A stretch of 33,885 nt of DNA from an uncultured Ruminococcus sp. (GTDB lineage: Bacteria > Bacillota > Clostridia > Oscillospirales > CAG-272): assembly GCA_964588425.1 (NCBI GenBank), contig CAZPPN010000002.1, positions 1 to 33,885 on the forward strand, written 5' to 3'. Each line of letters begins with the position of its first letter. Within the stretch, counting starts at the first letter, position 1. The notes below the pieces were generated by a model, which was given only the letters and a program-made list of their open reading frames with translations, ran no database searches and had not been told where the DNA came from. Shown here one piece after another: positions 6,876 to 33,885 of this stretch. The position numbers and the translations under genes were made by a program.

Positions 6876-6989
6876 GATTTCCTCTCCTTAAAAAGTGAAA
6901 TTATGTAATGAAATTTATGTAAACCCGGACGTGCCGGATATTACCGAAGATGATGTGCGTACTGATAATATGCTCAGTACACTCACTTC

Positions 6990-7631
6990 TCACTCGTTCA
7001 TGAGTGAATGTGTCATTTTTTTCCATGTAACGGCGCGCGCGAGCTTTCTTATACCGAAGAAGTGTAAAAATATATTTACCTTTGTGAAAAGGTAAATCAG
7101 GGTTGCGGGTATATTGCTGTCAAAGCCGTTTATGATCACATAGAAGATGGTTGCCGCGAATGATACTGCCGTGAGTAACTGCGCTGTTTTTGTCCGTCCG
7201 TCGATTTTTGCGAATGTCGCCTCGTAGACGTATTCTCTGAGCGCATCTCCCGAGTACCCGTGGTATGTCATGCGGCACATGATCCACAGGATGCTCACAG
7301 CCAGCGAGATCTCTGCGATAAACGGCAGGATCACGTAAAAGCAGTTCAGCATTCCGGCAGACGGTATACATCCGCCGATCACACAGAACAGTACGGCTGC
7401 ACATGAAAGCGCGGTCATCTCGAGATACATCCTGCGAACCGATTTTCCCCCAGGCGGCATCGGAGACATTCTGACGCCTGTGTAGATGTATGCTCCGCTG
7501 TCGTCCGGCTGAAAATCACGCAGGTACGCGTGCTTGTTTTTTCTGTCTTTTTGATCTTTATTATTGCTCATTACGGTAAGAGTTTCTGAGTTTGATTTAC
7601 GATATGGCGCAAAGAAAAAGCGATAACCCAT
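6990..7631 (-). CDS. Hypothetical integral membrane protein (about 4 TM segments); the true start may be the internal ATG at 7571 (193 aa)
   Basis: 213-aa ORF with hydrophobic segments LSCAAVLFCVIGGCIP, CFYVILPFIAEISLAVSILWIM, AQLLTAVSFAATIFYVIING and ATLIYLFTKVNIFLHFF. Neither candidate start has a convincing RBS. No family recognised. Confidence 0.55.
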   Translation of the reverse strand: MGYRFFFAPYRKSNSETLTVMSNNKDQKDRKNKHAYLRDFQPDDSGAYIYTGVRMSPMPPGGKSVRRMYLEMTALSCAAVLFCVIGGCIPSAGMLNCFYVILPFIAEISLAVSILWIMCRMTYHGYSGDALREYVYEATFAKIDGRTKTAQLLTAVSFAATIFYVIINGFDSNIPATLIYLFTKVNIFLHFFGIRKLARAVTWKKMTHSLMNE

Positions 7632-8075
7632 ATCAACACAATATTATAACAAATATATAAAGAAAATTCAATAAGTTAACGCAATATTTTTCATCCTATT
7701 TGGCATAATTTTTTGGAAAAATGATTCATATTGTACAAATTCCGCAGATTCTGCCGGCTAAAACGTCTATTTTTTGAATTGTTCTTTAGTTTTTTGGGGC
7801 AGGAATCTTCAGTCAACAATTGCCCCGACGCTATTGTACGCACTTTTTAGTATTAAACTTTCAGGTTCGTATTCTATATTACTCATTATAACACAAAACG
7901 CCGCATAATACAAGCAATTTTGCCCGAGGAACACTTTTTTGTGGAAAACAGTCATGCAAAGGCTCGGTTTTAGGATAATTTTACCAAAATTGCAATGCTG
8001 AGCCGAAAATACAACCCGAACTTGAAGCGCAAAAAATAAATCTCCGAAACGGAGAAAAACGCAATATTCGGGATG

Positions 8076-8156: not shown

Positions 8157-9020
8157 ATGAACGAAAACATTTTTGCCGAAAATCTTATAAAGCTCAGAAC
8201 AGGAAAATCACTCACGCAGGAAGAAGCGGCGGCATCCCTCGGGATCTCGAACAAGACTCTCTCAAAATGGGAAAACGGCTCATCCTCGCCCGATCTCGAT
8301 ATGCTCGTGAAGCTGGCGCAGTTCTATGACACAACGACGGACTCACTCCTCGGCATATCCGACAGCGGAAAGAAGAGTTACATTGATGTAATAAACGAAG
8401 AATTCGATCAGCTCGAGGGAAGCGCCGTGCTTGAGCGTACATTCCCGATGCATTTCGATACCATCCGATCGCTTTTCCGCAGGTTAACTGTGCTCAATGA
8501 TGACAATCCCGTAATACCTGAGAAGCCGTGGGATTACAGCTCATCGAGATCAAAGATACAGGTACGTACGTTCTTCGATTTCATGGTCGCATCTGATGAC
8601 GTGAACATGAGCGTCACGCTGTACGGCAATAAGAACAACTGGGCATGGCTTGAATGTGAGGAAAAACGCGCTGAGACCGAGAAGATTTTTGCATTCCTTG
8701 CAAACGATGACGCCCTCCGACTCTGCAAGCTGATCCACACCGACGGATTCCCCGATCACTTCACCGCGGACTATGTTGGCGGACTGCTCGGAATATCGGA
8801 AGAGTGTGCGGCGGAAATTCTCGAAAAATCCTGCGAAGCGAAGCTGTGTACAAAAGAAGTCGCGCATCTTGTTGAGGGTGAGAAGAATCTTTATGTAAGC
8901 TGGGGCGACGGCAAAATTATGTCCTTGATCGCGCTTGCATTCGAACATATGACGGGACATGAAAGCTATGATTACTGCTACGGCGGTGCTGCAAAGATGA
9001 TTACCAAGGGGGAGGAATAA
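8157..9020 (+). CDS. XRE-family (Cro/C1-type HTH) transcriptional regulator with a ~220-aa C-terminal domain of unknown function
   Basis: N-terminal LTQEEAAASLGISNKTLSKWENGSSSPDLDMLVKLAQFYDTTTDSLLG. GAGGT RBS. 287 aa. Confidence 0.88.
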   Translation: MNENIFAENLIKLRTGKSLTQEEAAASLGISNKTLSKWENGSSSPDLDMLVKLAQFYDTTTDSLLGISDSGKKSYIDVINEEFDQLEGSAVLERTFPMHFDTIRSLFRRLTVLNDDNPVIPEKPWDYSSSRSKIQVRTFFDFMVASDDVNMSVTLYGNKNNWAWLECEEKRAETEKIFAFLANDDALRLCKLIHTDGFPDHFTADYVGGLLGISEECAAEILEKSCEAKLCTKEVAHLVEGEKNLYVSWGDGKIMSLIALAFEHMTGHESYDYCYGGAAKMITKGEE

Positions 9021-9023
9021 GAT

Positions 9024-9821
9024 ATGAAACTGTCGGAAAACATCAAAAAATTCAGACTCAGAAAAAAACTGACACAGGAAGAGCTGGCGAATATGCTCGG
9101 CGTATCGGCACAGGCTGTGTCAAAATGGGAAACAAGCGAGACCTACCCCGACGGTTCGCTTCTCCTGCCAATTGCGAACGCGCTTGACACATCACTCGAC
9201 GCACTGTTCGGCAACGATAAGATCTACAACGACGATATGTACGAAAGACTCAGACTTATGTTCGAAGGACTCAGCAATAAGGAAGAGATCGCGAAGATAT
9301 ACGACCTCTGCTGGATGGCGTACTGTGCGATGTGGAATTGCGACAGTGTCAGAGACTGCAGCGGAAACTCGTCTGTCATGAACAGAGACGGTGGATTTGT
9401 GCAGATCTCGAACCGCGGCATGAGATATTTCTCGGTATTCAAGGAGCCTGATGACGGCTGGAGCAAGTACATCGGAGACGCTGAGCTTATGAGAGATGTA
9501 TTCGAGCGGCTTGGAGAGCGTGACACAATGAAAGCGGTGCTGTATCTGCATACTCTGGAGCACGGATACTACTTTGATGCTGATGTGATTTGTGAGGCGT
9601 GCTCGATTGAAAAAGAGAATCTCGGACGGGTGATGGATGATCTCTGTCAGATGCATCTTGTGCTGAAAAACGAGGTCAACATCAACGGTGAGATCCGCGA
9701 TATCTACATGACACGCCCGACGTACAGGATCATCTCCCTGCTTCTCATGGCGGAAGAGCTGATGTACAACAAGGGCTACTCACTGCAGACTGACAACAGA
9801 ATGAAGCCGTATCTCGGATGA
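9024..9821 (+). CDS. XRE-family (Cro/C1-type HTH) transcriptional regulator with a ~200-aa C-terminal domain of unknown function
   Basis: N-terminal LTQEELANMLGVSAQAVSKWETSETYPDGSLLLPIANALDTSLDALFG. GGGGGAGG RBS sits inside the end of the upstream gene. The start is 3 nt after the upstream stop. Confidence 0.88.
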   Translation: MKLSENIKKFRLRKKLTQEELANMLGVSAQAVSKWETSETYPDGSLLLPIANALDTSLDALFGNDKIYNDDMYERLRLMFEGLSNKEEIAKIYDLCWMAYCAMWNCDSVRDCSGNSSVMNRDGGFVQISNRGMRYFSVFKEPDDGWSKYIGDAELMRDVFERLGERDTMKAVLYLHTLEHGYYFDADVICEACSIEKENLGRVMDDLCQMHLVLKNEVNINGEIRDIYMTRPTYRIISLLLMAEELMYNKGYSLQTDNRMKPYLG

Positions 9822-9874: not shown

Positions 9875-11272
9875 TCAGTCGTAATAAGAGGCTGCGGCAG
9901 GTTGGATCTGGACATCAGGTGATGTGCGGATTCCGGAGAGCAGCTTTCTTCGGAATACACGGTTTCCGGATTTTGCCCACAGATAACCGTTTTCGTCAAT
10001 CTCAACAAGCTCGGGTATGAGTCTATCCGGCAGCGGAATAATAACATCAATGAGTCCGAACGAACGGATTGCTTGTATACCCATTTCGGTAGCTGCGTAT
10101 GTACGGTCGGTTGAGTCCGTTGTAATATCTGTTGCACCTGTATACTTGAAGTCTGGGTAGAAATGCAGCAGTCCGTGATAGAACTTACCGTTCAGCGATC
10201 CGTCGGGCATGATCGTCATAGAATATACACAGCCTTTGCCGAGATCGCTTACATAAAGACGCCATCTGTCGGATGATATTGTCAGAGCGGTGATGCGATC
10301 AAATCCGTCAGCCGCGAGCTTCTTCTCTCCGTTGGGAGTGACGAAGAAGATCTTTCCGCCGTCCGCTGTATATTCGCCTTCTGCGGTAAATTTTCCGGAA
10401 GAGACCGCACGCGCTTTTTCGGGGAACGGGCAGCTGCATTCTTCCCAAGGCATATCGAGCGAGATCAGCTTTTCAGCTCTGCATGAGAGTTTCTTGGCTG
10501 AAACAGGCTCTCTGTCCCAGTTTTTCCACAGGAATCTGAATTTTGTGATAATGGTTTCAACATCGCCGTATCTGCTGCAGTGTCCTTCGCCCGGATGGTA
10601 TAACGCAAGCATATCGTAACCGGCATATCTGAGCGCTCTTTCGATCTCATCAGCGGCACAGAATGATGATCCGAAATATTCGTTCGGCTCGTCTTCGGAG
10701 TAGTCTGTGGCAACTCTGATCGGCTTTGTCTCGAATTTTCGCACAAGATCAGGAAGATCTCTTCCCTTGCCCATTGCGAGGAAGCTCGGACTGCTCATCT
10801 GAACTCTGCGGAAATAGTCGTTTCTGAACCACGCAGCGTTCCAAGAAGCGATTCCGCCTGAAGATCCGCCGCTGATCATGTGCATATCAGCATTCGGCGA
10901 GATCTTAAGACTATGCTCAGTGATAAGATTCGGTATGATTTCGTTTACAAGAAAATCGGGATATTCAGATGTGAATAGGTCGTAATTGAGAAGCCGTACG
11001 CCGCGATTATATCCACCGTCAACAGTCGAGTGCAGTGTGCCGGAAACGATGCCGATCACAATGAAGGCAGGCGCTTCACCGTTTTCCGCTAAAGTCTGCA
11101 TCGCAAATGCTTCAGCTTTGTTGAGACCGTCACACTCTACAAGAAGAGCACACTCATCACACCCCTCAGCGATATAGGGTATGAAAATACTGTATTCGAA
11201 AACAACACCGCGAAAATAGTTCTGTGCCGTGTATTTTCCGCTGATGGTTTGACCTTTAAGGGTTATATCCAT
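9875..11272 (-). CDS. Fusion protein: N-terminal esterase-type alpha/beta hydrolase plus a C-terminal SMP-30/gluconolactonase-like beta-propeller region (family-level guess)
   Basis: 465-aa ORF with a G-x-S-x-G nucleophile elbow in MISGGSSGGIASWNAAWF. The C-terminal ~190 aa have repeat-like strands (LYVSDLGKGCVYSM..., YAATEMGIQAI...). AGGGGG RBS. Domain calls come from motif memory only. Confidence 0.6.
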   Translation of the reverse strand: MDITLKGQTISGKYTAQNYFRGVVFEYSIFIPYIAEGCDECALLVECDGLNKAEAFAMQTLAENGEAPAFIVIGIVSGTLHSTVDGGYNRGVRLLNYDLFTSEYPDFLVNEIIPNLITEHSLKISPNADMHMISGGSSGGIASWNAAWFRNDYFRRVQMSSPSFLAMGKGRDLPDLVRKFETKPIRVATDYSEDEPNEYFGSSFCAADEIERALRYAGYDMLALYHPGEGHCSRYGDVETIITKFRFLWKNWDREPVSAKKLSCRAEKLISLDMPWEECSCPFPEKARAVSSGKFTAEGEYTADGGKIFFVTPNGEKKLAADGFDRITALTISSDRWRLYVSDLGKGCVYSMTIMPDGSLNGKFYHGLLHFYPDFKYTGATDITTDSTDRTYAATEMGIQAIRSFGLIDVIIPLPDRLIPELVEIDENGYLWAKSGNRVFRRKLLSGIRTSPDVQIQPAAASYYD

Positions 11273-11430: not shown

Positions 11431-13512
11431 ATGAGCATATCATACACCGAAAAATACCCGGCATTCGGGAAAAACATTTTCCGTTTCACAAACGAAAACA
11501 GCGTTCTGCATGAGCGTGATCTCGGTATTGCTGGAAAGAGAGTATCAGTCATGACTCCCGAAAACAGGGCGGCGTACATCGGCGGAATACAGAACTGCCC
11601 GTGGTGCGGATCGGGATTTTCGCTTGAAATACGGATCGACGGCGAGCGCATACCGGGACGTGAGTGGATCTGGCTGCCGAACGGGATCATAAGACGCGGC
11701 AGAATCGGCGGATGGGAAGCTGAAACATTGACGGTGATTCCGCCCGAGGGGGACGCCGCAGTAATGAAGATAAGATTCGCCAACCGCACGGGTCACGATT
11801 CCGCAGCTCCGGTTCAGTTTATCATGAGAGGATCGGTGCGGCGCGAGACAAGCTGGAGATTTCCGATACCTGATAAAGGCGAGCCTCATTTTGCGTGTGT
11901 GAGTGCGGCGGACTCCGTTCTGTATGCGATCGGCTGTTCAAATGATGTCGGCGGATGTAAGTATCCGGCGGATGCGGCAGGCATTGCTGTGACAACATCG
12001 CTTGACGGAATGAAACTGTTCCCGCAGGCGGATATCTGGGAATGCGAAAAGTTTATCCCCGACGGCGGCGAGCTTGAGTTTTATGTCTCGCTTCATCTGA
12101 ACAGGCATGATACAGTCACAGGATACGCTGATGATGTCCGCGGACATTGGGAGGAGTACATCGGGGCTGCATTTGACTGGCTTGAGGAGGAGACCGAGCG
12201 AATTTACTCAAAACTGCCGGTGTTCTCGTCCGATAATCCGTCGCTCGACAAGCTGTATCACCGCTCACTCGTGACATATTCGCTGAACCGTTGGGAAAAC
12301 AGCGAGCTGGTAACAAGTCCGTTCTACACCACGGGAAGTCTCAACGGCGGATGTATGTGTTCGTATCTGTGGGATTACGGCGGAGGACTTATGCTGCATC
12401 CGCTTGTCGACCGTGAAACAAACGCAGATATGATCAGACGCTATCTCCACGCCGATCTGTGCACATCATACGCTATCACACCGCTTGACGGATCTCCCAC
12501 AGGACCGTGGTACCATATAAATCATGAAAAAATCATTCAGATGATATACTACTACGTTCTGCATACGGGGGATACGGATTTTCTGCGCGAAGAAGTTGAC
12601 GGACGCACGATTGCCGACTGGGCGAGATTCCATGCGTATGTGCGTGACGATATCTCGAAGCCGGTTGAGCTGATAGACTACGGCAAGGACGGCGAGTCGC
12701 ATCTCGAGCTCAGGAGAGACTACGTCTATCAGGGAGTAATGCCGGATCTCAACGCAAGACGGTATATGAACTACAAGCTCGCATACGAGATTACAAAAAT
12801 GAATGGCAGTCCGGATGATCTTCTGATGGAACGCGCCGAGGCATTGAAACCGCTTATGAAAACCATGTGGAACGAAGACAAAGGCTGGTACGAATATATC
12901 TGGGAGGGAAAGCGTGACATCAGATGGACGGTTCAGATGTTCAAATTCCTCTCAAGTCCGGTGATTGACGACACGATCCGCGAAAAACTGATCTCGCACC
13001 TGAACGACAAAGAGTTCCTGTCGAAATTCGGTCTGCACAGTATGTCAAAACTCGATCCGGCGTACGATCAGATAGATATAGACAACGGCGGCGGTGGAAT
13101 CTGCACACTGTTCACCATGCAGATCGCCTGTCAGCTTTACGAGCTGGGGTACGATGAGCTTGCATCCGATATCTTAAGCCGTGTACTGTGGTGGGGTGAG
13201 AGACTGCCGTATATGGGTGACTCCTGCGCTGCAAATATGCTTGAGGACAGGGAAGATACTCCGCTGCAGGCAGACATCAGCTCAGTCTCATGCGCGCAGA
13301 TGATACTCTTCAAGCTGTGCGGAATCTCTGTATCGCCCGACGGAAGCATAAGAATCAAGCCGTCGAAGATCCGTCCTGCGGAAAACATCCGTGTCGAAAA
13401 CTTTACTCTGCGCGGCAGAACATTCACGCTCTCGATCGCCGGGGATGAGTTTGAGGTGATAACAGCAGACTCGGCAAAGCACTCAGCAATCGGCGGAGAA
13501 ATCGTTATCTGA
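11431..13512 (+). CDS. Hypothetical glycoside-hydrolase-like protein (possible (alpha/alpha)6 six-hairpin fold; family not recognised)
   Basis: 693-aa uninterrupted ORF with a GAGGT RBS. The helix-rich C-terminal two-thirds carry acidic/aromatic motifs (LWDYGGGLMLHP, YYYVLHTGDTDFLREE, WWGERLPYMGDSCAANM). The function is a guess from composition and neighbourhood. Confidence 0.55.
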   Translation: MSISYTEKYPAFGKNIFRFTNENSVLHERDLGIAGKRVSVMTPENRAAYIGGIQNCPWCGSGFSLEIRIDGERIPGREWIWLPNGIIRRGRIGGWEAETLTVIPPEGDAAVMKIRFANRTGHDSAAPVQFIMRGSVRRETSWRFPIPDKGEPHFACVSAADSVLYAIGCSNDVGGCKYPADAAGIAVTTSLDGMKLFPQADIWECEKFIPDGGELEFYVSLHLNRHDTVTGYADDVRGHWEEYIGAAFDWLEEETERIYSKLPVFSSDNPSLDKLYHRSLVTYSLNRWENSELVTSPFYTTGSLNGGCMCSYLWDYGGGLMLHPLVDRETNADMIRRYLHADLCTSYAITPLDGSPTGPWYHINHEKIIQMIYYYVLHTGDTDFLREEVDGRTIADWARFHAYVRDDISKPVELIDYGKDGESHLELRRDYVYQGVMPDLNARRYMNYKLAYEITKMNGSPDDLLMERAEALKPLMKTMWNEDKGWYEYIWEGKRDIRWTVQMFKFLSSPVIDDTIREKLISHLNDKEFLSKFGLHSMSKLDPAYDQIDIDNGGGGICTLFTMQIACQLYELGYDELASDILSRVLWWGERLPYMGDSCAANMLEDREDTPLQADISSVSCAQMILFKLCGISVSPDGSIRIKPSKIRPAENIRVENFTLRGRTFTLSIAGDEFEVITADSAKHSAIGGEIVI

Positions 13513-14663: not shown

Positions 14664-16208
14664 TTAACCAAGAATACCGTTCTTGAGAGCCCAGCCGAGT
14701 GCGGGATCGCAGAAGGAACGAGGATCCTTGAGTTCGAGACCGTACTTGTGAGCTGTGTTTTCGGGTTCTTCAGCGTCGCTGTATTCAGCGATAGCCTTAA
14801 CCTGATCTGCGGAGAGAGCAGACTTGAATACTACGATATCGTCATAGTCAACGTTGAAGCTGCAGTCACCGTTGTATTCGCCTGTGCCGTCTTCACCGAT
14901 GTTGAATACCCAGCCCTTAGTTGTGGGATCCCACTGACCGATCTTGGCAGCATATTCGTATGTACCAACTTCACCATACTGCTTACCGTTGAGGTAGTAT
15001 GTGTATGTGCCGGCTTCAGCGTCTACAACGAGAGTCATGTGTACCCATTCACCGGAACCTGCGTAATCGTAGTATGTGTCAACTCTTGTAGCTCCGCCGC
15101 TGTCGGAAGAAGCATTGAATCTGAGGTCACTTCCGCGAACGGAGAGGAGCCAACCTGTGTTCTTACCGTTTTCCCAGCTCTTGTTACCGAAGAGAACGGG
15201 GTCAGATGTGGGTCTGTTGTTGATCTTTACCCAAGAAGCGAATGTGAAGGAAGATGTACCGAACTTCATTTCGGGGATGGAAATGTAGTTGCCGCCGTCC
15301 TTTGTGTTAGCAGCGTATTCGCCGTTAGCACCTTCAACGAGGTCAACATTACCAACTGTGAGAACTTCGTACTTGCCGTTAGCGTCCTTGATTTCGCCGC
15401 CTTCAAATGTGATTCTGAGGTCAGCTGTGTTAAGGAATGCTTCCACGGGATCGATTTCTTCGGGTTCACCGTAGTTGGAGATAGCGCGAACTTCCTTTTC
15501 GGAGAGAGCAGACTTGAAGATTGCTACTTCGTCGAAGTCAACGTTGAAGTTGCAGTCGTCATTGTATGTACCTGTGCCGTCTTCACCGATGTTGAAAGCG
15601 AGCTTGGGGTTGTTTGTGGACCACATACCGATCTTATCCTTGTAAGAATAGGAGGTTGTGCCCTGGAGTCTGCCGTCGTAATAGATGGAGTATTCACCTG
15701 CTTCAGCGTCAACAACGATAGCAACGTGTACCCATTCACCGCGCTTGGAGTAGGAATAGCTAGCGTCTGTTCTTGTTGTGCCGTCAGAGTCGGAACAAGC
15801 GTTGAGCTTCATATCGCTGCCGCGGAGGGAGAGAAGCCAACCAACATTCTTACCGCTGCTCCAGCTCTTGTTACCGAAGAGAACGGGGTCAGATGTCTGG
15901 GAGATGGGCTTGATCCATGCTGTAACTGTGAAAGAATCATTACCGAACTTCATTTCGGGGATGGAAATGTGGTTCTTGTCGCCAATAGTCTTGGCAGCCT
16001 TGCCGATAACGCCGTCAACGAGAGTTGTGTCACCTACGGAAACTACTTCATAGTTACCGTTCACGTCAACGATGCCATCATCAAAATTGATGTAGCAGTC
16101 AGCTTTAGCGAGGAGAGCTGCTACGTCTACATTGTGTACTGCTGCTGTGGGAAGGCAGAGAGAAGCTGCGATCATGATAACAGCGAGTACCAGAGATAAC
16201 TTTTTCAT
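14664..16208 (-). CDS. Secreted protein with two tandem LamG/concanavalin-A-like lectin domains
   Basis: Start ATG 16208 with GGAGG (16220-16216) gives the signal peptide MKKLSLVLAVIMIAASLCLPTAAV. The ORF-track start at 16334 is an upstream extension. Two ~229-aa repeats share PEMKFG..SFT..AW(I/V)K......DPVLFGNKSW..GKN.GWLLS.RGSD..(L/F)NA and FN(I)GEDGTG.YN.DC.FNVD(F/Y)D. Strong codon bias. Confidence 0.85.
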   Translation of the reverse strand: MKKLSLVLAVIMIAASLCLPTAAVHNVDVAALLAKADCYINFDDGIVDVNGNYEVVSVGDTTLVDGVIGKAAKTIGDKNHISIPEMKFGNDSFTVTAWIKPISQTSDPVLFGNKSWSSGKNVGWLLSLRGSDMKLNACSDSDGTTRTDASYSYSKRGEWVHVAIVVDAEAGEYSIYYDGRLQGTTSYSYKDKIGMWSTNNPKLAFNIGEDGTGTYNDDCNFNVDFDEVAIFKSALSEKEVRAISNYGEPEEIDPVEAFLNTADLRITFEGGEIKDANGKYEVLTVGNVDLVEGANGEYAANTKDGGNYISIPEMKFGTSSFTFASWVKINNRPTSDPVLFGNKSWENGKNTGWLLSVRGSDLRFNASSDSGGATRVDTYYDYAGSGEWVHMTLVVDAEAGTYTYYLNGKQYGEVGTYEYAAKIGQWDPTTKGWVFNIGEDGTGEYNGDCSFNVDYDDIVVFKSALSADQVKAIAEYSDAEEPENTAHKYGLELKDPRSFCDPALGWALKNGILG

Positions 16209-16247
16209 AAAAAGCCTCCAGATATTGATAATTGGTGTTGAACACAG

Positions 16248-16276
16248 AATTAAATTAACTCCCGAAATTAAATTAA
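16248..16276. repeat. Two direct copies of AATTAAATTAA spaced 18 bp apart in the LamG gene leader
   Basis: Copies at 16248-16258 and 16266-16276, between the predicted -10 (16293-16298) and the RBS. Possible regulator site. Confidence 0.4.
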
Positions 16277-16292
16277 TATCCATGTTAGTAAC

Positions 16293-16321
16293 ATTATACC
16301 TTAAATGGATGAAAAAAGCAA
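16293..16321 (-). promoter_or_regulatory. Putative sigma-A promoter of the LamG-repeat gene
   Basis: On the minus strand: TTGCTT (16321-16316), 17-nt spacer, TATAAT (16298-16293). Confidence 0.45.
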
Positions 16322-16426
16322 TAAGTTCTAACAAATAATTATGAAAAACGGAATAATTTCCTCAAATTTTTTTGATTACTCTGCAATTTTTGGGCGGTTT
16401 GTCTGTGGCATCAGCCAACGCTCCCA

Positions 16427-23768: not shown

Positions 23769-24371
23769 TTACGGCTCAAACAGCTTGAACGCCGCGGACG
23801 ACATCACATAAATATCATCGTCCGATTTCACCTTGCCGCGGGATGATACGATGTGCCCGTCATCAAGTCCCGTGATCACAAGGGGCTTGCCGCTGATCAG
23901 AACAATTCCGCGCTCGCCTTTTTCGGCAAAGTTCGGCTTTGTGATCACGGCTGTCTCAATCGCCGGTGCTAAGTGCGAGACGGGATAGATCTGCTTCCAG
24001 ATAATGTCTGCACCGCAGTTGATCTCCGTCCGCTTTCCGGCTTTTTTCAGCGTCTTCTTGATCACATATACCTGCCCGTTGTATTCGAGACGGTACGTTT
24101 CGCATTGTTCGTCCTCACCGATCTTTTCCGCATATCTCTCAAAACATTCCGCAAACGTCAGACAGATCTCACCGTCACGCACTTCCATGATTCCGTCGAG
24201 TCCGCATCCGAGAACTTCGCACAGTCTCAGCAGGGTCTCTGTTGTTACAGTCTCATTTTTTGACAGCTTCGCAATCGTCCGCGATGATAATCCTGCCAGC
24301 TCACCAAGCTCGGTCTTGCCGATTCCTTTGTCGATCAGCGTTTTCCACAGATTGTCGTATGATATGTACAT
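23769..24371 (-). CDS. XRE-type HTH DNA-binding protein with a ~135-aa C-terminal domain of unknown function
   Basis: ATG 24371 with AGGAGG upstream (200 aa); the ORF-track start 24500 is an upstream extension. N-terminus MYISYDNLWKTLIDKGIGKTELGELAGLSSRTIAKLSKNETVTTETLLRLCEVLGCGLDGIMEV. Confidence 0.8.
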   Translation of the reverse strand: MYISYDNLWKTLIDKGIGKTELGELAGLSSRTIAKLSKNETVTTETLLRLCEVLGCGLDGIMEVRDGEICLTFAECFERYAEKIGEDEQCETYRLEYNGQVYVIKKTLKKAGKRTEINCGADIIWKQIYPVSHLAPAIETAVITKPNFAEKGERGIVLISGKPLVITGLDDGHIVSSRGKVKSDDDIYVMSSAAFKLFEP

Positions 24372-24402
24372 CTCCGTACCTCCTTTCGGTTTGTTCGGTT
24401 TT

Positions 24403-24431
24403 ATTATATCATATATTTGCGAAAACGTCAA
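24403..24431 (-). promoter_or_regulatory. Sigma-A promoter of the 200-aa HTH gene
   Basis: On the minus strand: TTGACG (24431-24426), 17-nt spacer, TATAAT (24408-24403). The inverted repeat ATTTACT-N2-AGTAAAT (24437-24452) abuts the -35. Confidence 0.65.
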
Positions 24432-24550
24432 TAAAAATTTACTAAAGTAAATAATAAATCTCCAAAACGACGGAGTGTGAGCAAAAAAACAGGGGGACAT
24501 TCGTTTGAATATCTCCCGTTATTTTATTGATAAGCCGATTCCTGCTATTC

Positions 24551-25423
24551 TCAGTCCTTAATCACAGCAGATGCGAGATCGGCAATGGCTTCTTCGGAGA
24601 GAGGTGTGAACGGTTCGCGGCAGTCGCCGTATTCGATTCCGTTGAGGCGGAGCAGCATCTTCGATGACGGCATTACTCCGTGGCGGAGGATCTTTTCGAT
24701 TACTGCGTTCGCCTTTCTCTGCGCGTCAAATGCACCGGCAATGTCACCTGCGCGGAACTTATTGTAGATCGCGAGGATTCTCTCGGGTTGGAAGTTATAT
24801 GTTGTTCCGATACCGCCGTCAGCTCCTGCCGCAAGACCGGAGAGAAGCATTTCGTCCGATCCGTTGTAGAACACCTTTTCGGGGAAGTAGGAGTGGATTC
24901 TCTCAAGCTGGAAGAAATCGGATGATGTGAACTTCATGCCTGCGATGTTGTCGAGAGAGAGGATCTCGCAGAGCTGATCTGTATTAAGGGAAGAGCCTGT
25001 GAGCGCAGGGATGTTGTAGATGATTACGGGAAGCGATGTTTCTTCGGCAAGGCGCTTGTAGTAATTCTTCACTTCCTTGAAGCTGTACTTGTAGTAGAGC
25101 GGTGTTACGGAAGAGAGCGCGTGTGCTCCGCATTTTTCAGCGTGGCGTGCAAGCTCGAGTGTGCTCTTGGTCGATGTTGTTCCGACGTGCGCGATGATCG
25201 AGATACGGTCACCGACGGATTCGACTACTGTTTCCATGAGCTGTTTTCTTTCGTCCTCGGTCATGAGAACCATCTCACCGCTCGAGCCGCCGACGTAAAG
25301 TCCGTGCACGCCGCAGTCAGCGAGATGCTTTGTGAACGATGCGATCTTCTCATTGTCGATGCCGTCGTCCGTGAACGCTGTGAGAAGCGCGGGGATGATG
25401 CCTTTCAGATTTTCGTATGCCAT
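24551..25423 (-). CDS. nanA: N-acetylneuraminate lyase-like enzyme (DHDPS/NAL family)
   Basis: ATG 25423 (MAYENLKG..., 290 aa) with an AGGAAA RBS. Motifs GLYVGGSSGE, VTPLYYKYSF, IYNIPALTG and Schiff-base Lys context IAGMKFTSSDFFQLERI, then GADGGIGTTYN. From memory, the pattern matches clostridial NanA better than DapA. Confidence 0.75.
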   Translation of the reverse strand: MAYENLKGIIPALLTAFTDDGIDNEKIASFTKHLADCGVHGLYVGGSSGEMVLMTEDERKQLMETVVESVGDRISIIAHVGTTSTKSTLELARHAEKCGAHALSSVTPLYYKYSFKEVKNYYKRLAEETSLPVIIYNIPALTGSSLNTDQLCEILSLDNIAGMKFTSSDFFQLERIHSYFPEKVFYNGSDEMLLSGLAAGADGGIGTTYNFQPERILAIYNKFRAGDIAGAFDAQRKANAVIEKILRHGVMPSSKMLLRLNGIEYGDCREPFTPLSEEAIADLASAVIKD

Positions 25424-25470
25424 AGCTTTTTCCTGCCTTTTGTAAGTATTTTTCAATTGAATGTAAGTAT

Positions 25471-25532: not shown

Positions 25533-26621
25533 TCAGAATGATTTCATGAACTCGATGAACTCCTCGTCTTCGCGGAGGAAGTCGTATCGGCTGTCGTTTT
25601 CGAGATCACGGCGTATCAGTCCGGCATTCGTTTCGGTGTAGTTTTTGGTGCTTTTTGATGCATCGGATGTCGCCCGGTTTACGAAAATGCTTGTGTAGTT
25701 CTTTTCTTCGGGTTCAAGGTTGTCGAACGCATCCGCATGGAACTTGGCAAGCCTCAGATTTTCAAGTGTTTCATCCCTGTGTCCGAGTTCGGCGTGTCTT
25801 ATTGCGAGATTGTGATAAATAGAGGAAATCCGGCAGTGGAAGAACAGGTAATTTCCGTCGTAGATCAGCGTGCTCCACAGCTTCAGCGCAGTTTCGAGAG
25901 CGAAAATTCTCTCTTCCGGTGTGCTGCCGAGCCATTGAATATTCATTACAAGTGAGTCCATAAATTGAAGATTGTTGTGGTGCTTCTGTTTTGCGGCTTT
26001 TTTCATTCCTTCTTCCGTAAAGTAAGCATGTTCAAGAAGCATCTCACGGCTTGTGATCATATTGCCTGCCATCATCGCATATTTTTCGGATTTTTCTTCG
26101 TCTGCAATGGGAAGATTTTTGTTTGAATAAGTAAAAGTGAGTGTTTGTATAGAACCTTCTCGGATATCGTTGTCCGTGCAGTCGGAAAGAATCCGTTCGC
26201 AGATTCCAACCATTTCTTCTGCGTTTTTTGCAACTTCTTCATCAGGATAACCAATGTGTAACGTTAAGAAAAGCGCGTGTGCAAGTTCGCTGAGACAATT
26301 GAAATTTTTAGGATATTTCTTTGAAAACTCGCGCCAGAGTTCAAGATTTTCCCTGACCATGCCTTTGTTTTGGAATTTCAGGGATTTTTCCTGATACTCA
26401 TTCACTTCCGCATCCTCGTGCGCCTGATCGCGGTCGAACAGCTCGTCTGTCGTTACACCGAAGAAGTTTGCAATCGGCACGATCAGCGTTACATCCGGCA
26501 GAGCGATGTTGTTCTCCCATTTCGATACCGACTGAAACGATATTCCGAGGTATTCCGCTAATTTTTCCTGCGTGATGTTGTCTTTTTGTCTGAGTTTTTT
26601 TATCTTTTCACCGATAGTCAT
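25533..26621 (-). CDS. XRE-family HTH regulator with a ~290-aa helical-repeat (TPR-like) C-terminal domain
   Basis: N-terminus MTIGEKIKKLRQKDNITQEKLAEYLGISFQSVSKWENNIALPDVTLIVPIANFFGVTTDELF. All-helical C-terminus. Clear paralog of 28521-29648; shared motifs G(S/A)IQTL, DG(N/D)..F(F/Y)HC and (R/A)YDF(L/I)R(E/D)D. Confidence 0.85.
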   Translation of the reverse strand: MTIGEKIKKLRQKDNITQEKLAEYLGISFQSVSKWENNIALPDVTLIVPIANFFGVTTDELFDRDQAHEDAEVNEYQEKSLKFQNKGMVRENLELWREFSKKYPKNFNCLSELAHALFLTLHIGYPDEEVAKNAEEMVGICERILSDCTDNDIREGSIQTLTFTYSNKNLPIADEEKSEKYAMMAGNMITSREMLLEHAYFTEEGMKKAAKQKHHNNLQFMDSLVMNIQWLGSTPEERIFALETALKLWSTLIYDGNYLFFHCRISSIYHNLAIRHAELGHRDETLENLRLAKFHADAFDNLEPEEKNYTSIFVNRATSDASKSTKNYTETNAGLIRRDLENDSRYDFLREDEEFIEFMKSF

Positions 26622-28520: not shown

Positions 28521-29648
28521 TTAATGCATAACGTCCCATTCGCCGACATATGGCTTCAGCTTTTCTTCGATCTCGCGGAATCCATCATCATCGCGGATGA
28601 AATCGTATGCGTCGGACTTCATGTCGTTCAGAAGAAGCAGGGCATCGTTTTCGGTCTCCGATGTGATGAAGGACTTGCCGCTGCTCTCGTATCCGCGGAG
28701 AATGAGTGATGTGTGAGTGATGATGTCCTCGGCGGAGTATTTGATGAACCCGATCGCGTGATCAGCCGCGCAGGAGAGATGTTCGAGAGTCTTTTCACGA
28801 TCCGCGCGCTTTGCGTAGTATAATGCCTGATCGGAATGAGTGGACGCGAGATCGCAGTGGTAGAATCCGAAATCGCCGTCCTCGAACATTAGTCTGAGGA
28901 ATGCGATACGCTTGTCGCGGAGTGCGGCTTTGTCGTCGTCCGTGTAGTAAGCCTCGCCGCTGTCATGTTTTCTTCCGCTTTTTGTAATCTCATCCGAAAG
29001 ATACTCTATGAGATCTAAAATCAGTCTCTTGTCCGCACGGTAGCCTTCATCACCGCTGTATACATGACATCTCAGAAAATCTCTTGAGACTGCCATGTGC
29101 GGCATCTTATTTGCAAGCTCAATTGCACGTTCTCGCTTTCCTATACCGGGATAAATTAAACAGAGTGTCTGTATTGCACCGGAGCTCAGACCAACATGAG
29201 TGCAGTTTTCACTGATTTTCTCAGCAAGCCGGATGGTTTCTTCCTTATAGCGTTCGCGTTCTTCTTCGCTGAGAGAGCCGTCATACATGAGATAAAATGT
29301 GTCAAACATGATACCTGACATGATTTTGTAACTGTCCGGGAACTCACGTAAGCCGTCTGATAAAATTTTGTATGATTCCGAGTGGTATCCGCGTGCAGAG
29401 TATGATTCGGCGTTGTCACAGATTTCCGCGATACGCTTTGTCTTTACTTCAAGATTGATTCCGAGAAGCTCGTCGGATGTCACACCAAGGAGATTGCACA
29501 GCGGCGCTATGAGGGAGAGGTCGGGAGATGTTTTGTCAAGCTCCCACTGAGAGACTGCGGACACGGATACTCCGAGGTATTCCGCGAGAGTTTCCTGAGT
29601 CATGTCTTTCTGACGGCGAAGTTTTTTGATTGTTGTACTGATATTCAT
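28521..29648 (-). CDS. XRE-family HTH regulator with a ~300-aa helical-repeat (TPR-like) C-terminal domain
   Basis: N-terminus MNISTTIKKLRRQKDMTQETLAEYLGVSVSAVSQWELDKTSPDLSLIAPLCNLLGVTSDELLG. GGAGG RBS 6 nt upstream. Paralog of 25533-26621. Confidence 0.85.
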   Translation of the reverse strand: MNISTTIKKLRRQKDMTQETLAEYLGVSVSAVSQWELDKTSPDLSLIAPLCNLLGVTSDELLGINLEVKTKRIAEICDNAESYSARGYHSESYKILSDGLREFPDSYKIMSGIMFDTFYLMYDGSLSEEERERYKEETIRLAEKISENCTHVGLSSGAIQTLCLIYPGIGKRERAIELANKMPHMAVSRDFLRCHVYSGDEGYRADKRLILDLIEYLSDEITKSGRKHDSGEAYYTDDDKAALRDKRIAFLRLMFEDGDFGFYHCDLASTHSDQALYYAKRADREKTLEHLSCAADHAIGFIKYSAEDIITHTSLILRGYESSGKSFITSETENDALLLLNDMKSDAYDFIRDDDGFREIEEKLKPYVGEWDVMH

Positions 29649-29852: not shown

Positions 29853-30812
29853 TTACTCCGGCAGAATCAGGTCATCCACGATGCGGCGTATATCCTCGTA
29901 ATCCGCCTTGGGAAGGAGGTATGTGTGCTGTCCGCCCTCTTCTCTCGTCCAATGGGTAACGTATTCGTCATCCACCGTAATGCGCCCGAATTCGTGATAG
30001 TTCCAGTAAACTCCGGGACGTACCGCTTCCAGCATGGCAGTCTGATCCCAGCTGCATCGGCCTGCGCCGTGGTTGTGGATGTCGTATGCCCGTCCGACAG
30101 GATCAGACGGCGGTACCTTTGAGGGATAACCGACCATGGTCGTGATATATGACCCCAGCTCGTAGCTTGCAAATACCAGCTCGCCTGTCCATTCATCGCA
30201 GGCTGTTTTTGCACTCTTTCCGCTGCCTCTGATGTTGTATTCCCATGTCATCACATGACTCTGAGGATTTCCGCTTTCGTAAAGGAGCATGGGCCATGAT
30301 TCAAAGAAACGTCCGCCCATGACTACGGTTCTCGCCAGTTTCCGACGTACCAGTTCCTTGCCGGACAGAGGCGATATTTCGTCGGCAGCGCTTGTAATCA
30401 GCTTTGCCATGGATGTCAGCGTTCCGGTTACAACCAGAGTGATACTTTCGTCTTCAGCCTCTGCGAGAATTTTCCGCAGAACTGTCAGCGTGTCCGGTAC
30501 GGATTTGTCTGACATCACGGATTCGGCAGGATAACTGTTCGGGAATTCTTCGCACAGAGCACCCGCATATACACCGCGTCCTTCGCTCCAGCAGTCATAG
30601 TTGATTCCGACAGGTACTTCTCTTCCGAAGTATCGGTTGATGGCATCAATACATCCTGCGACATACGGAGTAGCCGCACAGTGCGTAACAGCCAGAAGTT
30701 CCGCCTCGCCTCTGTCGCAAAGCCTATGCAGCATGGCAAGTGTTCCTGCGTCGTCGCAGTCACCGCCGATGTCTGTATCGAATATAATTTTTACCGGTTT
30801 TCTGTTTTCCAT
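29853..30812 (-). CDS. Inosine-uridine-preferring nucleoside hydrolase-like protein
   Basis: ATG 30812 with GGAG 8-11 nt upstream (319 aa; the ORF-track start 30827 lacks an RBS). N-terminal KIIFDTDIGGDCDDAGTLAML resembles the Asp-cluster motif of the IUNH fold. It lies 55 nt downstream of the GH95 frame end. Confidence 0.75.
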   Translation of the reverse strand: MENRKPVKIIFDTDIGGDCDDAGTLAMLHRLCDRGEAELLAVTHCAATPYVAGCIDAINRYFGREVPVGINYDCWSEGRGVYAGALCEEFPNSYPAESVMSDKSVPDTLTVLRKILAEAEDESITLVVTGTLTSMAKLITSAADEISPLSGKELVRRKLARTVVMGGRFFESWPMLLYESGNPQSHVMTWEYNIRGSGKSAKTACDEWTGELVFASYELGSYITTMVGYPSKVPPSDPVGRAYDIHNHGAGRCSWDQTAMLEAVRPGVYWNYHEFGRITVDDEYVTHWTREEGGQHTYLLPKADYEDIRRIVDDLILPE

Positions 30813-30867
30813 TTGAATAATCTCCATTTCAATTTATAACCCGTTGTCTGAGATCGGTATGAAAAAT

Positions 30868-33474
30868 TTATTCCCCGAGATAATCCGGCGGAGTGATTGA
30901 ACCTTGGCTGAGCTGACGGATGATCATACGGTATCTCAGTCTGTCCTCTTTGGTAGAACGATTGATCGTTGCAAATGCGCCGTCTGCGGAAGAATCGAGG
31001 GTATCTCCGCGTGTGATTTTGTATGTTACGGTTTCGTGCCGTGCGGGATCGCATCCGATATCGCGGTAATATCCGCCGACAGCTCCGATTGCGATCAGCT
31101 CATATACAGGCGATGAATCGCACGCACGCCAGATGTTTACGGGTTCGTCGAAATCCCAGCGTACGGAAGGCTCACGGTTTACCTTAATACTATGCGGAAC
31201 GGGAAGGAGCTCGTGTGCGGGAATTGAGGAGATTTCGTAAACCTCTCCTGCTGTTGTGTCAAACTCGATTCTGTCGCTGTCGATAATCCGAGGAGAGAAC
31301 CCGTATTTTGCTTTTGCGATGTTTTTATATTTTATGCGGCAGATTCCGCCGGATCGGGAGTGAACCGTGATCTATTCTGCGCAGAGGTTTTTCCATTCAA
31401 CATCAAAAACAAAGTTTCCGCGTGCGGCAAGCCCTTTGTATGATCCGCTGTTCCATGCGTCGGGAAGGGCAGGAAGCGGACGGATGAATTCTCCGTGACT
31501 CTGCAGAAGCATTTCAGCAACGCCGGATGTTCCGCCGAAATTTCCGTCGATTTGGAACGGAGGATGTGCATCCCAAAGATTGTAATAGGTTTTGCTTCCG
31601 AGCAGGGAGGAGTAGAGCTTGAGCGCACGGTTGCCGTCACCGGTTCTCGCCCATGCATTCAGTCGGTGTGCAAGTGCCCATCCGGTCGAATCATCGGATC
31701 TGAGATTCAGAGAGACCTTGGCGGCATCGAGCCATGCGGGAGTTTCGTCGGAAATATGTGTTCCGGGATAGAGCCATACGAGCTGTGAGATATGACGGTG
31801 GCGGTATTCACCGATTTCGCCGTAGAATTTTTCTTCCCTGTATTCCTTGATCTGCCCGCTCCATCCGATCTGTACGGGATCATATCGGTCAAGCTGTTCT
31901 CTGATTTGCTTTACGAGAGCGATATCTTCAGCCGGGAGCGTGTTTTCGCCGAGGATTTCTACACATTTCAGAAAATCAAGAGCATTTTCATATATCATCT
32001 GCTGATCGAACGCGCATCCGACTGTGGCATAATATGGGAGAATGCAGTCCCGCCCGGGTGCGAACTCTTGCTCGGGAGAGGCTGATGTAGGAACAAGCCG
32101 CAGTCCGTCAAAATCAGCGGTGCATTTCATCATGAACCGTGCACAATCCCGGATTGACGGATAGACTTTTTTAAGAAGGAGCTGTTTGTTCTGCGTGAAA
32201 GTATAGGCTTCCCAGATCATTTTGGCTGTAAATGCACCTGTTCCGGGACCTGAATGAGAAGCGCCGGGATTCATTCCATAGATTTCATAAGGTGTTGTTG
32301 AACCGCCGAATGCCCATCCGCATCCCCCGGGCGCAGGATCGTAGTTCTCGGGGAGTGCAGCTTTTATATAATTTGAGGCAACTTTATTCGCCTGCTCACG
32401 TCCGCTGATATTATAATCGAGGTACGCATCAAATGTTTCGCCGATGTTTGTGATAAACGCAGGCCAGTAGTTCATCTGTACATTGATGTTGTGGAAATAT
32501 GTTCCGCCCCACGGAGCTGTATCATAACAGTTCCATACACCCTGGAGATTTGCAGGCAGACATCCTGGGCGCGATGAGGAAATGAGAAGATAACGTCCGT
32601 ACTGGAAATACAGCACTTCAAGATAGCGGAAATGCTCTTTGTGATAATTTTCAACTATTTTGTCAGTCATCATATCCGGCACAGTACAGTCGTCAAACTC
32701 AAGTGAAACACGGTCAAAGAGGGATTTGTAGTCGGATATATGACGCTCTTTCAGTTCATCATAGCTGTGTGATGCCGCGTTTTCAATCATCTCAGAGACT
32801 TTTTCGTGCGGATTAAAATCGCGAAGTTTGAGATGTTTGGAGCTTTCGGTGAAAACGGACGGTCTGAGCTCATAGTTTGTAGCTCCGCAGAAGATGAATT
32901 CGGTTGTCTGTGCATCCTCAACGGTGAGAAACGTGCCGTCTGTTGATATTTTTCCGTTGGTTCTGACTTTGAGCTGACCTTCAAAACGGATATTGTAAGG
33001 CTGCATTGTGCCGCGGAATGTTACAGTATCCCCATGAACAGAAACCTGTCCGCGCTTCTCGATTCCGCTCTCTTCCGTCAGATGCGCGATCTTCATATCA
33101 AAAACAAGCGAGGTTTTCTAGGTGGATGTGATTTTTCCGACAATCGCACGGTCAGGATATGACGCAAAGTATTCGCGTTCGATGTGACATGATCCGCAGT
33201 CGTACCGCACATATGCAGCGGCACGTGAAATATCGAGTCCTCTTTCGTAGCATGATCCCTAAATTTCTGCGTGCGGAAAACGGATGTACAGATTGGAGAA
33301 ACTGTTCAGTCCTTTCGGCGTGAGCATGGAGTTTTCGCTGATCTGTATTCTTTCGTATTCGATGCCGCCGAAGATATTGCCGCCGAGATGTGAGCAGCCG
33401 ATCGGTATGGAATATCTTTCCCATCCGTCGTTATTGTCACACGCCATATAATCATATCTGAGTACCAGTTCCAT
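30868..33474 (-). CDS. GH95 alpha-L-fucosidase-like glycoside hydrolase; a single 869-codon frame interrupted by three in-frame TAG codons (a pseudogene under code 11, or amber read-through)
   Basis: ATG 33474 with an AAGGAG RBS. One frame gives [84 protein letters not shown] and VEWKN....[15 protein letters not shown], then ~110 further aa to TAA 30870-30868. TAG codons lie at 33261-33259, 33120-33118 and 31374-31372. There is no frameshift and no TAA/TGA. Confidence 0.8.
31372..31374 (-). other. In-frame TAG codon 3 of 3 in the GH95 frame
   Basis: Context GCA GAA TAG ATC ACG, i.e. ...[20 protein letters not shown]... Confidence 0.95.
31372..33096 (-). CDS. Largest uninterrupted segment of the GH95 locus under the standard code (what an ORF caller would report)
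   Basis: 574-aa ORF-track entry holding the catalytic (alpha/alpha)6 region motifs [10 protein letters not shown] and [10 protein letters not shown]. It is bounded upstream by TAG 33120-33118 and ends at TAG 31374-31372. Confidence 0.7.
33118..33120 (-). other. In-frame TAG codon 2 of 3 in the GH95 frame
   Basis: Context TCC ACC TAG AAA ACC, i.e. ...[25 protein letters not shown]... Confidence 0.95.
33259..33261 (-). other. In-frame TAG codon 1 of 3 in the GH95 frame
   Basis: Context GAA ATT TAG GGA TCA, i.e. ...[22 protein letters not shown]... Confidence 0.95.
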
Positions 33475-33518
33475 AAGCAGTCTCCTTTTTGGGAAATTGT
33501 ATGTTATTATTTTATAAC

Positions 33519-33547
33519 ATTATAACATATCGCTGTGCCGAATTCAA
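33519..33547 (-). promoter_or_regulatory. Promoter of the GH95 gene
   Basis: On the minus strand: TTGAAT (33547-33542), 17-nt spacer, TGtTATAAT (-10 at 33524-33519). Confidence 0.6.
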
Positions 33548-33583
33548 TATGGAATTGTTCCGATGTGGCAAAAAAATTATTGG

Positions 33584-33612
33584 TTGACAATCCAATGGTT
33601 GTGTGATAAAAT
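33584..33612 (+). promoter_or_regulatory. Promoter of the YhcH-family gene
   Basis: TTGACA (33584-33589), 17-nt spacer, TGaTAAAAT (-10 at 33607-33612). Confidence 0.65.
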
Positions 33613-33654
33613 AAGTTTGAAAACCAAGTTATCATAAACCAAGGAGATGCAGCT

Positions 33655-33885
33655 ATGATTATTGATTCCATCAGAAACCGCGCAAAATACTACTGCCTCG
33701 GAGAAGAGTACAAAGCAGCTCTTGATTTCTGTGCATCCGTTCTCGAAGACGGATTCAAGGAAGGCGATTATCCGCTTCTCGATGGCAAAGTTGTCGTAAA
33801 GAACCGCGTTCTCACAACAAAGCCCATTGAAGAATGTAAGTGGGAGTGCCACAGAAAGTTCGTTGACATTCATTTCGTAGCATCC
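33655..33885 (+). CDS. YhcH/YjgK/YiaL-family protein (DUF386; sialic-acid/beta-galactoside-operon associated), N-terminal 77 codons, continues beyond the window
   Basis: Absent from the ORF track because there is no stop in the window. AAGGAG RBS (33641-33646) precedes ATG 33655. Translation MIIDSIRNRAKYYCLGEEYKAALDFCASVLEDGFKEGDYPLLDGKVVVKNRVLTTKPIEECKWECHRKFVDIHFVAS matches the family pattern recalled for E. coli YhcH/EbgC-like proteins. Confidence 0.75.
   Translation, partial: MIIDSIRNRAKYYCLGEEYKAALDFCASVLEDGFKEGDYPLLDGKVVVKNRVLTTKPIEECKWECHRKFVDIHFVAS

Follow-up and report, generated by a model that had tools for sequence, protein, structure and literature searches.

Three in-frame TAG codons in a GH95 glycosidase gene of an uncultured Ruminococcus sp.: translation through the stops weighed against a young pseudogene

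Can a bacterial chromosomal gene that is interrupted three times by the same stop codon still be a working gene? The question is raised by a locus of an uncultured Ruminococcus sp. of the order Oscillospirales (assembly GCA_964588425.1, contig CAZPPN010000002.1), from which a stretch of 33,885 nucleotides (nt), called here the window, was analysed. The minus strand of the window carries a gene for a glycoside hydrolase of family GH95, of the alpha-L-fucosidase/galactosidase type (30868..33474), identified by Pfam, by its homologues and by tblastn. The frame runs from the ATG at 33474 to the TAA at 30870-30868 and has 869 codons, that is 868 sense positions including three TAG codons, and then the TAA. 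Exactly three internal stops are present and all are TAG: codon 72 (TAG 1, 33259..33261, minus strand), codon 119 (TAG 2, 33118..33120, minus strand) and codon 701 (TAG 3, 31372..31374, minus strand). Neither translation nor tblastn revealed any internal TAA or TGA, or any frameshift, between 33474 and 30868. The reading in which ribosomes were already passing through the frame when the TAGs appeared, with all its variants taken together, is given about even odds (a probability of roughly 0.5), because there is only one type of lesion, it occurs only at the most tolerant sites and it is accompanied by no measurable damage.

The anatomy of the gene is that of an intact family member. A description made earlier from the letters of the DNA (hereafter the sequence-only reading) had reported this frame with three TAG-only stops and no indel, and it was reproduced in every detail: with an intact homologue as query, tblastn aligned residues 1-868 in one frame, with no indel in 2.6 kb. 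GH95 enzymes were recognised by three modules, an N-terminal beta-sandwich (PF14498), an (alpha/alpha)6 catalytic domain (PF22124) and a C-terminal beta-sandwich (PF21307). All three were matched by Pfam (E 9e-27, 5e-118 and 1e-23, respectively). Residues 50-748 align to the structure PDB 2rdy (E 3e-104), and an alignment to 4ufc was obtained as well. The catalytic motifs NINxxMNYW, SPE and FQIDGNFG are intact on comparison with the solved GH95 structures; the catalytic roles presumably belong to the Asn pair in NINxxMNYW, the Glu in SPE and the Asp in QIDGNFG, as in AfcA of B. bifidum. In a search of 5.8 billion proteins the nearest homologues were found to be 66-69% identical and uninterrupted, every one of them being exactly 868 amino acids (aa) long, and the sole match between 69% and 100% identity was the window's own 574-aa GH95 fragment. 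The database record splits the gene, a 71-aa piece and a 574-aa piece being called. The expression signals described earlier were also located. A Shine-Dalgarno sequence AAGGAG (33482..33487, minus strand), read from the sequence, stands 7 nt upstream of ATG 33474. The promoter-like TTGAAT-17-TATAAT with an upstream TG (33519..33547, minus strand) is a consensus match only, at 10/12 positions, and the region holds 6 promoter-like sites against 5.5 expected. The chance of (61/64)^168 that had been put on the open frame after the last TAG is arithmetically right, but such an open frame is also expected for a very young pseudogene and does not discriminate between the readings.

The residues that stand opposite the three TAGs were read from an alignment of 119 homologues, a comparison of orthologues that the sequence-only reading had called for. 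The columns hold D/E/N/S/K/Q at TAG 1 (entropy 3.08 bits, top 4% of candidate sites), K/A/E/Q/R at TAG 2 (2.83 bits, top 9%) and T/R/E/K/Q at TAG 3 (3.09 bits, top 3.5%), and no column shows conservation of Trp, Tyr or Gln. In the two best solved structures, PDB 2rdy and 4ufc, the residue opposite TAG 2 and opposite TAG 3 is Lys. At each of the three columns Glu, Lys and Gln are about equally acceptable, and an inserted residue would be compatible with any of these. Since the G-ending codons of Glu, Lys and Gln are one step away from TAG, the identity of the residue cannot separate recoding from nonsense mutation.

The placement of the TAGs along the gene is non-random. All GH95 codons were weighted by their mutational paths to TAG, column entropy was taken from a 114-homologue alignment and significance was obtained by Monte-Carlo sampling. 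It was found that, ranked by variability, all three TAGs belong to the top 3.5-10% of candidate sites, for which P is 0.0006-0.002 under random nonsense mutation, in a test that was devised after the TAG columns had been viewed. With other subsets of homologues and a BLOSUM-based measure P was 0.0004-0.02. Placement at variable sites speaks against a dead gene because random nonsense mutation has no reason to spare conserved Trp, Tyr and Gln codons. When the closest intact homologue (P0001) was modelled with AlphaFold2 (pLDDT 85, pTM 0.89), the TAG-equivalent residues 73, 120 and 701 were predicted to lie in ordered beta-sandwich elements, in a turn or in strands and not in linkers; TAG 1 would correspond to a turn before a beta-strand and TAG 3 to a beta-strand of the C-terminal sandwich. 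Fission of the gene into separate polypeptides was considered and rejected because the TAGs fall outside linkers and TAG 3 is followed by neither a start codon nor a ribosome-binding site (RBS).

No collateral decay was seen in the remainder of the frame. Over 284 columns with an outgroup conservation of 90% or more, 28 mismatches were counted in the query, as compared to 30-34 in its four intact clade-mates. Over 184 columns with a conservation of 97% or more there were only 3 mismatches, all of them conservative or at sites that vary in the wider family. His317Tyr was examined as a possible inactivating change and dismissed, the position being variable in the wider family with Tyr present in 3 homologues. 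The earlier claim that the frame is, or recently was, under coding constraint is thus upheld by the lack of excess decay at conserved columns and by the intact catalytic motifs. Substitutions that create a stop make up 3.5-4.7% of those possible in GH95, and three stops therefore imply roughly 50-75 neutral substitutions. TAG accounts for 32-41% of the stop-creating substitutions, so that the probability of three TAGs out of three is 0.03-0.07.

The spectrum of lesions in the family was obtained from a tblastn survey of other GH95 loci (n=162), which replaced a crude all-locus scan for long frames open through one stop type, as the latter was swamped by false positives. Three of the surveyed loci are interrupted, two by a frameshift and one by a TAG, and none carries more than one lesion. 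Against this background a gene with three lesions, every one of them a nonsense TAG and none an indel, is atypical. In the loci L137 and L072 the GH95 match is split between two reading frames, indicating a frameshift. The third, L013, belongs to a metagenome-assembled genome (MAG) of the Acutalibacteraceae; its in-frame TAG (10415-10417) lies in a variable loop, is followed by 730 aligned residues and is the only other true internal stop among the 162 loci. Another gene of L013 (4329-6152) ends in TAG, and TAG is therefore a terminator there. Of the signs of a decaying pseudogene, the window's GH95 shows a frame disrupted under the standard code; relaxed constraint, mixed lesions and random placement were not seen.

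The GH95 allele was also found to have an anomalous age. In cluster look-ups a few neighbouring proteins of the window have relatives at least 90% identical elsewhere. Two contigs of a sister lineage from the European Nucleotide Archive (L082 and L083) are ~93% identical at the nucleotide level across the nucleoside-hydrolase and XRE genes, and both end 53-99 nt inside the 3' end of GH95, 400 nt short of TAG 3. No sister-strain GH95 that covers the TAG sites was found, and two sub-region searches gave nothing above ~70% identity. When GH95 was used for scans, the best identity among the matches listed was 58% in JGI metagenomes, and it was 57% in GTDB representatives and 33% in viral contigs, the last being the only GH95 relative in that set. 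The best loci in GTDB representative genomes (<=57% identity) come from rumen/gut Ruminococcus, Oscillospiraceae and Clostridia MAGs. Positions 2-100 of L083 correspond to window 30868-30966 and encode the last 32 residues of the GH95 orthologue. Over these 32 shared codons the proportion of synonymous differences (pS) is 0.53, the synonymous divergence (dS) is ~0.92 and the ratio of nonsynonymous to synonymous divergence (omega) is 0.14. For the genes adjacent to GH95 the dS to the sister lineage is 0.15 and 0.21, with 91-92% identity in the intergenic DNA. The neighbouring gene (29853-30827) drops from 98% to 93% identity toward GH95.

Judging from these divergences, the two lineages carry GH95 alleles several times as old as the DNA on either side, and the locus marks a boundary of recombination or allele replacement. 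Because dS is ~0.92 at GH95 and 0.15-0.21 in the flanks, the allele has had a separate and older history, one dominated by purifying selection (omega 0.14). Import of the allele from a more distant donor is allowed, not proven, by this pattern. Two observations on the contigs themselves may be added. An ABC-ATPase-like fragment (positions 1-121) of L082 is unrelated to the window and is joined to the GH95 tail at a shared QLSGG stretch; it is probably a chimeric contig end. A Logan contig (L166, from SRR14307658) is 100% identical to window 6641-7891 (1,251 bp), a stretch that is not at GH95, and represents an independent assembly of the same strain.

If the TAGs arose under translation, the GH95 frame would have evolved in a cell that decodes UAG by a suppressor-type tRNA with a CUA anticodon (tRNA-CUA). 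Such a tRNA would be encoded outside the 34-kb contig, either at another chromosomal locus, on a mobile element such as a plasmid or prophage, or in a related donor lineage from which the allele came by recombination. The gene would then specify a live or conditionally live host-glycan fucosidase-type enzyme whose output is tied to the availability of the suppressor. With three UAGs in series the yield of full-length protein would vary roughly as the cube of the per-site suppression efficiency, and GH95 function would need efficient suppression because basal read-through becomes negligible. Since the contig's other genes are without TAG, the decoding would have to be gene-specific, borne by a mobile element or derived from a donor. 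The effect could be gene-specific if a weak or conditional suppressor were tolerated only in a dispensable accessory gene. Decoding might instead be supplied by a mobile element. It could also be a property of the donor lineage of the unusually old allele, and the gene may then no longer function in the cell that carries it now. Live decoding by the present host, as opposed to a donor, is considered unlikely. So is the full proposal, in which a gut/rumen Oscillospirales-type Clostridium or its mobile element decodes UAG efficiently by a non-pyrrolysine suppressor tRNA, and fucosidase output is gated through three UAGs that the gene has evolved at tolerant sites. The option of amber suppression put forward in the sequence-only reading gains from the placement of the TAGs (P ~0.001) and from the lesion spectrum, but no cis recoding signal came to its support; the gating of the enzyme and its coupling to the downstream hydrolase, which had been suggested together with it, are speculation.

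A number of findings weigh against translation through the TAGs and have to be set beside this evidence. The window comprises 10,180 codons, of which GH95 makes up 8.5%, and no in-frame TAG exists in the ~9,300 codons of its other real genes. If TAG were generally sense, all three would fall into one of 25 genes with a P of 0.0006 for GH95 and 0.003 for any single gene, and the clustering therefore needs an explanation that is gene-specific or invokes import. The distribution bears most directly on a uniform genome-wide reassignment, in which release factor 1 has been lost and TAG is an ordinary rare codon. The in-frame TAGs spread over many genes at conserved columns that it predicts were not seen, GH95 being the only gene with any, and the sequence-only reading was right to disfavour such a reassignment on these grounds. 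Among the 24 long open reading frames (ORFs) of the window the terminators are 12 TAA, 12 TGA and no TAG, and TAG is already a rare terminator in the lineage, which would lower the barrier to codon capture. But in 43 related Clostridia loci TAG makes up 7-9% of terminators, and at that rate the standard code would yield 0/24 in 11-18% of cases (P 0.11-0.18). Depletion of TAG terminators, taken up as strong evidence, was thus downgraded to weak evidence, which fits suppression only weakly; the earlier argument from the absence of TAG holds for in-frame codons and is weak for terminators, as these are rare in relatives anyway. Relatives do use TAG terminators (1/21 in L001, and also in L082 and L013). 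A large screen of genetic codes reports that all known bacterial code changes reassign UGA (PMC8629427), and no bacterial reassignment of UAG outside pyrrolysine is known (PMC8629427). Uniform reassignment is accordingly regarded as very improbable; being a special case of translation through the TAGs, it makes the probabilities of the readings overlap slightly. Roughly neutral evidence comes from L082, where a Flavin_Reduct gene ends in TAG and then TAA (tandem stop, 3184-3189) in a part that is non-homologous to the window. The guanine-plus-cytosine content (GC) of L082 is 0.43 versus 0.485 for the window, and its tandem-stop part is also lower in GC. In more distant contigs with a phosphotransferase system (PTS) and GH4 all genes end in TAA or TGA.

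The decoding apparatus adds to the points against. No tRNA gene was detected in the window, nor in the contigs L082, L083, L084, L166 and L001 that were scanned, and neither pylTSBCD nor methylamine methyltransferase genes are among those annotated in the window. The 93 nt from each TAG gave fold z-scores of 0.65, 0.32 and -0.24, no PYLIS-like structure was found downstream of the GH95 TAGs and an Rfam scan of the window gave no family match. There is no motif common to the three contexts; the likeness of sites 1 and 3 (GCAGAA..TAG..GATCA) was matched in 9/100 shuffles. With no structure, no shared motif and no Rfam match, a cis recoding signal of the pyrrolysine (Pyl) or selenocysteine (Sec) type was rejected. 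A recoded (pro)phage region of genetic code 15 was rejected too, as there are no phage neighbours, no tRNA and no other gene with an in-frame TAG in the window. A recent foreign origin of GH95 was likewise discarded, its GC, its GC at third codon positions (GC3) and its codon usage matching the low-bias genes of the contig. To the after-the-fact design of the placement test must be added that a clean code with TAG as Gln, Glu or Lys gives so variable a triple only 0.7-2.3% of the time, from which the likelihood ratio of translation over the nonsense null is only ~7-20; it would be larger only if read-through were tolerated solely at unconstrained positions. The evidence from TAG-only lesions and the lack of frameshifts is also partly discounted, as these features were the ones that prompted the flagging of the gene.

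The closest competitor, which is placed somewhat short of even odds, is a very young pseudogene formed in situ. Here one nonsense mutation would have knocked out the gene and two more TAGs would have followed (e.g. by AAG, GAG or CAG to TAG) before any frameshift or missense decay, with the TAGs at variable sites by chance. Pseudogenes are far commoner than recoding, and stops that all cluster in one gene are exactly what a dead gene predicts, in a window where no suppressor tRNA or recoding signal was found. K, E and Q all occur in the TAG columns, and a single change turns the G-ending codon of each into TAG. GH95 is moreover an accessory gene; its locus is not the same in the sister lineages, and it is here that the two sister contigs break off. 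In L013 a GH95 gene carries a single in-frame TAG, and TAG clearly serves as a terminator in that genome. In-frame stops have been described as widespread and short-lived in bacterial genes (PMC7918605). What such a pseudogene explains poorly is the position of all three stops in the top 3.5-10% of variable sites (P ~0.001) and their being all TAG (P 0.03-0.07), when GH95-family lesions are two frameshifts to one nonsense and never more than one per gene. The ~50-75 neutral substitutions that it implies have left no excess of mismatches at conserved columns. A pseudogene a few tens of substitutions old may still be compatible with the data despite the missing signs of decay.

An artefact of sequencing or assembly, such as damage-type C-to-T errors that turn CAG into TAG or consensus errors at low coverage, had been listed as possible and is judged here the least probable of all the readings. 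The contig is metagenome-derived and GH95 is near its end. CAG is the commonest Gln codon (182 vs 25 CAA), and C-to-T errors would give mostly TAG. Such errors would, however, scatter over the 163 CAG codons of other genes and not only the 19 in GH95 (19/182), and they would not select variable columns. No indel occurs anywhere in 2.6 kb, and the independent Logan assembly is 100% identical over its 1,251 bp, which do not include GH95. Translation through the TAGs, in one or another of its variants, is kept as the favoured and most economical reading at the odds given above.

The surroundings of GH95 are those of an ordinary Firmicutes-type chromosome, with an Opp-type ATP-binding cassette (ABC) transporter, PTS EIIBC/EIIA/EI, GH4, a major facilitator superfamily (MFS) transporter, a ClC channel and a sigma-70-family factor. 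Divergent from GH95 and running off the contig end is a YhcH/YjgK/YiaL gene (DUF386, of the sialic-acid / N-acetylneuraminate anomerase type; 33655..33885, plus strand). It has its own AAGGAG RBS and is preceded by a promoter-like TTGACA-17-TAAAAT (33584-33612, plus strand), a consensus match. A 98-aa minus-strand ORF upstream of GH95 (33577-33873) was rejected as a gene, being the antisense shadow of this YhcH-like gene. On the other side, an inosine-uridine nucleoside-hydrolase-like gene (PF01156; 29853..30827, minus strand) starts 40 nt after the GH95 stop. No terminator-like site was found on the minus strand between the two, and the nucleoside-hydrolase-like gene is probably co-transcribed with GH95, as this arrangement suggests; it is conserved in the sister lineage with an omega of 0.09. 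An N-acetylneuraminate lyase gene (NanA equivalog; 24551-25456, minus strand) scores 320 bits in NCBIfam against a cut-off of 281. Because the upstream neighbour belongs to the YhcH family of sugar-metabolism genes, the locus is, on its gene content, best described as a cluster for host-glycan (fucose and sialic acid) utilisation and not a prophage. A prophage context was rejected, as the neighbours are YhcH-like, nucleoside-hydrolase-like, XRE regulators, ClC and NanA, with no phage genes nearby. NanA, the YhcH-like gene and GH95 together point to foraging on host-mucin glycans.

Some other features of the window deserve mention. Five XRE-family (HTH_3) regulators are encoded in 34 kb (8157-9020, 9024-9821, 23769-24500, 25533-26621 and 28521-29648), the last of them two genes downstream of GH95. 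They carry long unannotated C-terminal domains, the first adjoins the second, and the set resembles a paralogous family of sensor-regulators. A solute-binding protein gene (4614-6875, minus strand) and a gene with a LamG/ConA-like lectin domain (14664-16334, minus strand) show extreme codon bias (AAG 28-30 vs AAA 2, GAA 32-36 vs GAG 0-3; z = 43 and 32 vs the rest of the contig), and their products are likely, on codon usage, to be very highly expressed secreted or surface proteins. An ORF of 693 aa (11431-13512, plus strand) has no Pfam domain, and for one of 465 aa (9875-11272, minus strand) there is no more than a sub-threshold esterase match. At the 90% level of protein clustering each of the two forms a singleton.

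Either outcome would be instructive. If the TAGs are translated, this would be a case of natural stop-codon suppression that controls a cellular metabolic gene rather than a phage gene, and the first documented bacterial chromosomal gene dependent on natural amber suppression outside Pyl/Sec. It could represent an early capture of UAG in a lineage that already makes little use of TAG as a terminator. Such an intermediate is predicted by codon-capture and ambiguous-intermediate theories of genetic-code change and has not been described for UAG in bacteria. A further consequence would be that pipelines for MAG annotation miscall live genes as fragments, here as the 71-aa and 574-aa pieces. If GH95 is a pseudogene, it would serve as a calibration case, in which three stops of the same type without other lesions have arisen by chance, and it would show that a claim of recoding calls for prior tests of how tolerant the sites are and of collateral decay.

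How, then, does GH95 compare with the known ways in which a codon is read by a special tRNA? In Firmicutes that decode pyrrolysine an in-frame UAG is read by a dedicated tRNA-CUA, the decoding can be conditional and UAG becomes a rare terminator. A conditional expansion of the code by pyrrolysine is reported for Acetohalobium arabaticum (Prat et al. 2012, PNAS). GH95 resembles this system in being a bacterial chromosomal gene with an in-frame UAG for which decoding by tRNA-CUA is proposed. Pyl usually occurs once per gene, at the catalytic site of methylamine methyltransferases, whereas GH95 has three UAGs at unconstrained surface-type sites of a glycosidase. The bldA system of Streptomyces, in which a sense codon, TTA, depends on a developmentally regulated Leu tRNA, is an analogy only: a small gene set is tied to one rare tRNA, the codon there being a sense codon and here a stop codon.

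Genetic code 15 (TAG to Gln) with a phage-encoded suppressor tRNA is found in gut phages and is common in animal guts (Borges et al., preprint 10.1101/2021.08.26.457843; Peters et al. 2022, PMC9523058). Multiple in-frame TAGs in otherwise intact genes, a gut or rumen habitat and a recoding proposed to gate particular genes are shared features. The difference is that GH95 stands in a chromosomal host-glycan locus (YhcH, NanA, PTS, ABC transporter) in which only 1/25 genes has a TAG. A plausible source of a suppressor from the same bacterial class and habitat as the GH95 host is provided by the natural suppressor-capable allo-tRNAs of Clostridia and rumen bacteria (Mukai et al. 2017, PMC5389517). 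Their amber-anticodon variants translate UAG efficiently in E. coli, but the CUA versions were engineered (PMC5389517). The natural 9/3 allo-tRNAs have Arg, Leu and UAA-reading anticodons and not CUA, and genes with in-frame UAG have not been reported as their targets (PMC5389517). The window shows no such tRNA.

The nearest counterparts among chromosomal genes are the in-frame stop polymorphisms and 'pseudo-pseudogenes' of bacteria, treated by Belinky et al. 2021 (PMC7918605) and Feng et al. 2022 (PMC9122581). In Salmonella pseudogenes read-through is most frequent at UAG, and a TAG/CAG polymorphism is documented in Paenibacillus (PMC7918605, PMC9122581). As described there, such genes are like GH95 in being intact-looking chromosomal genes with in-frame stops and signs of continued purifying selection. 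Cases described there, such as the Paenibacillus TAG/CAG, have one orthologous stop and low-level near-cognate read-through, and the evidence given there is dN/dS, while for GH95 it is positional, the stops being at variable sites only. Lying outside any phage context, unlike the targets of Pyl and lacking a known tRNA partner, GH95 stands apart from all these systems as a chromosomal glycosidase gene with three UAGs in series.

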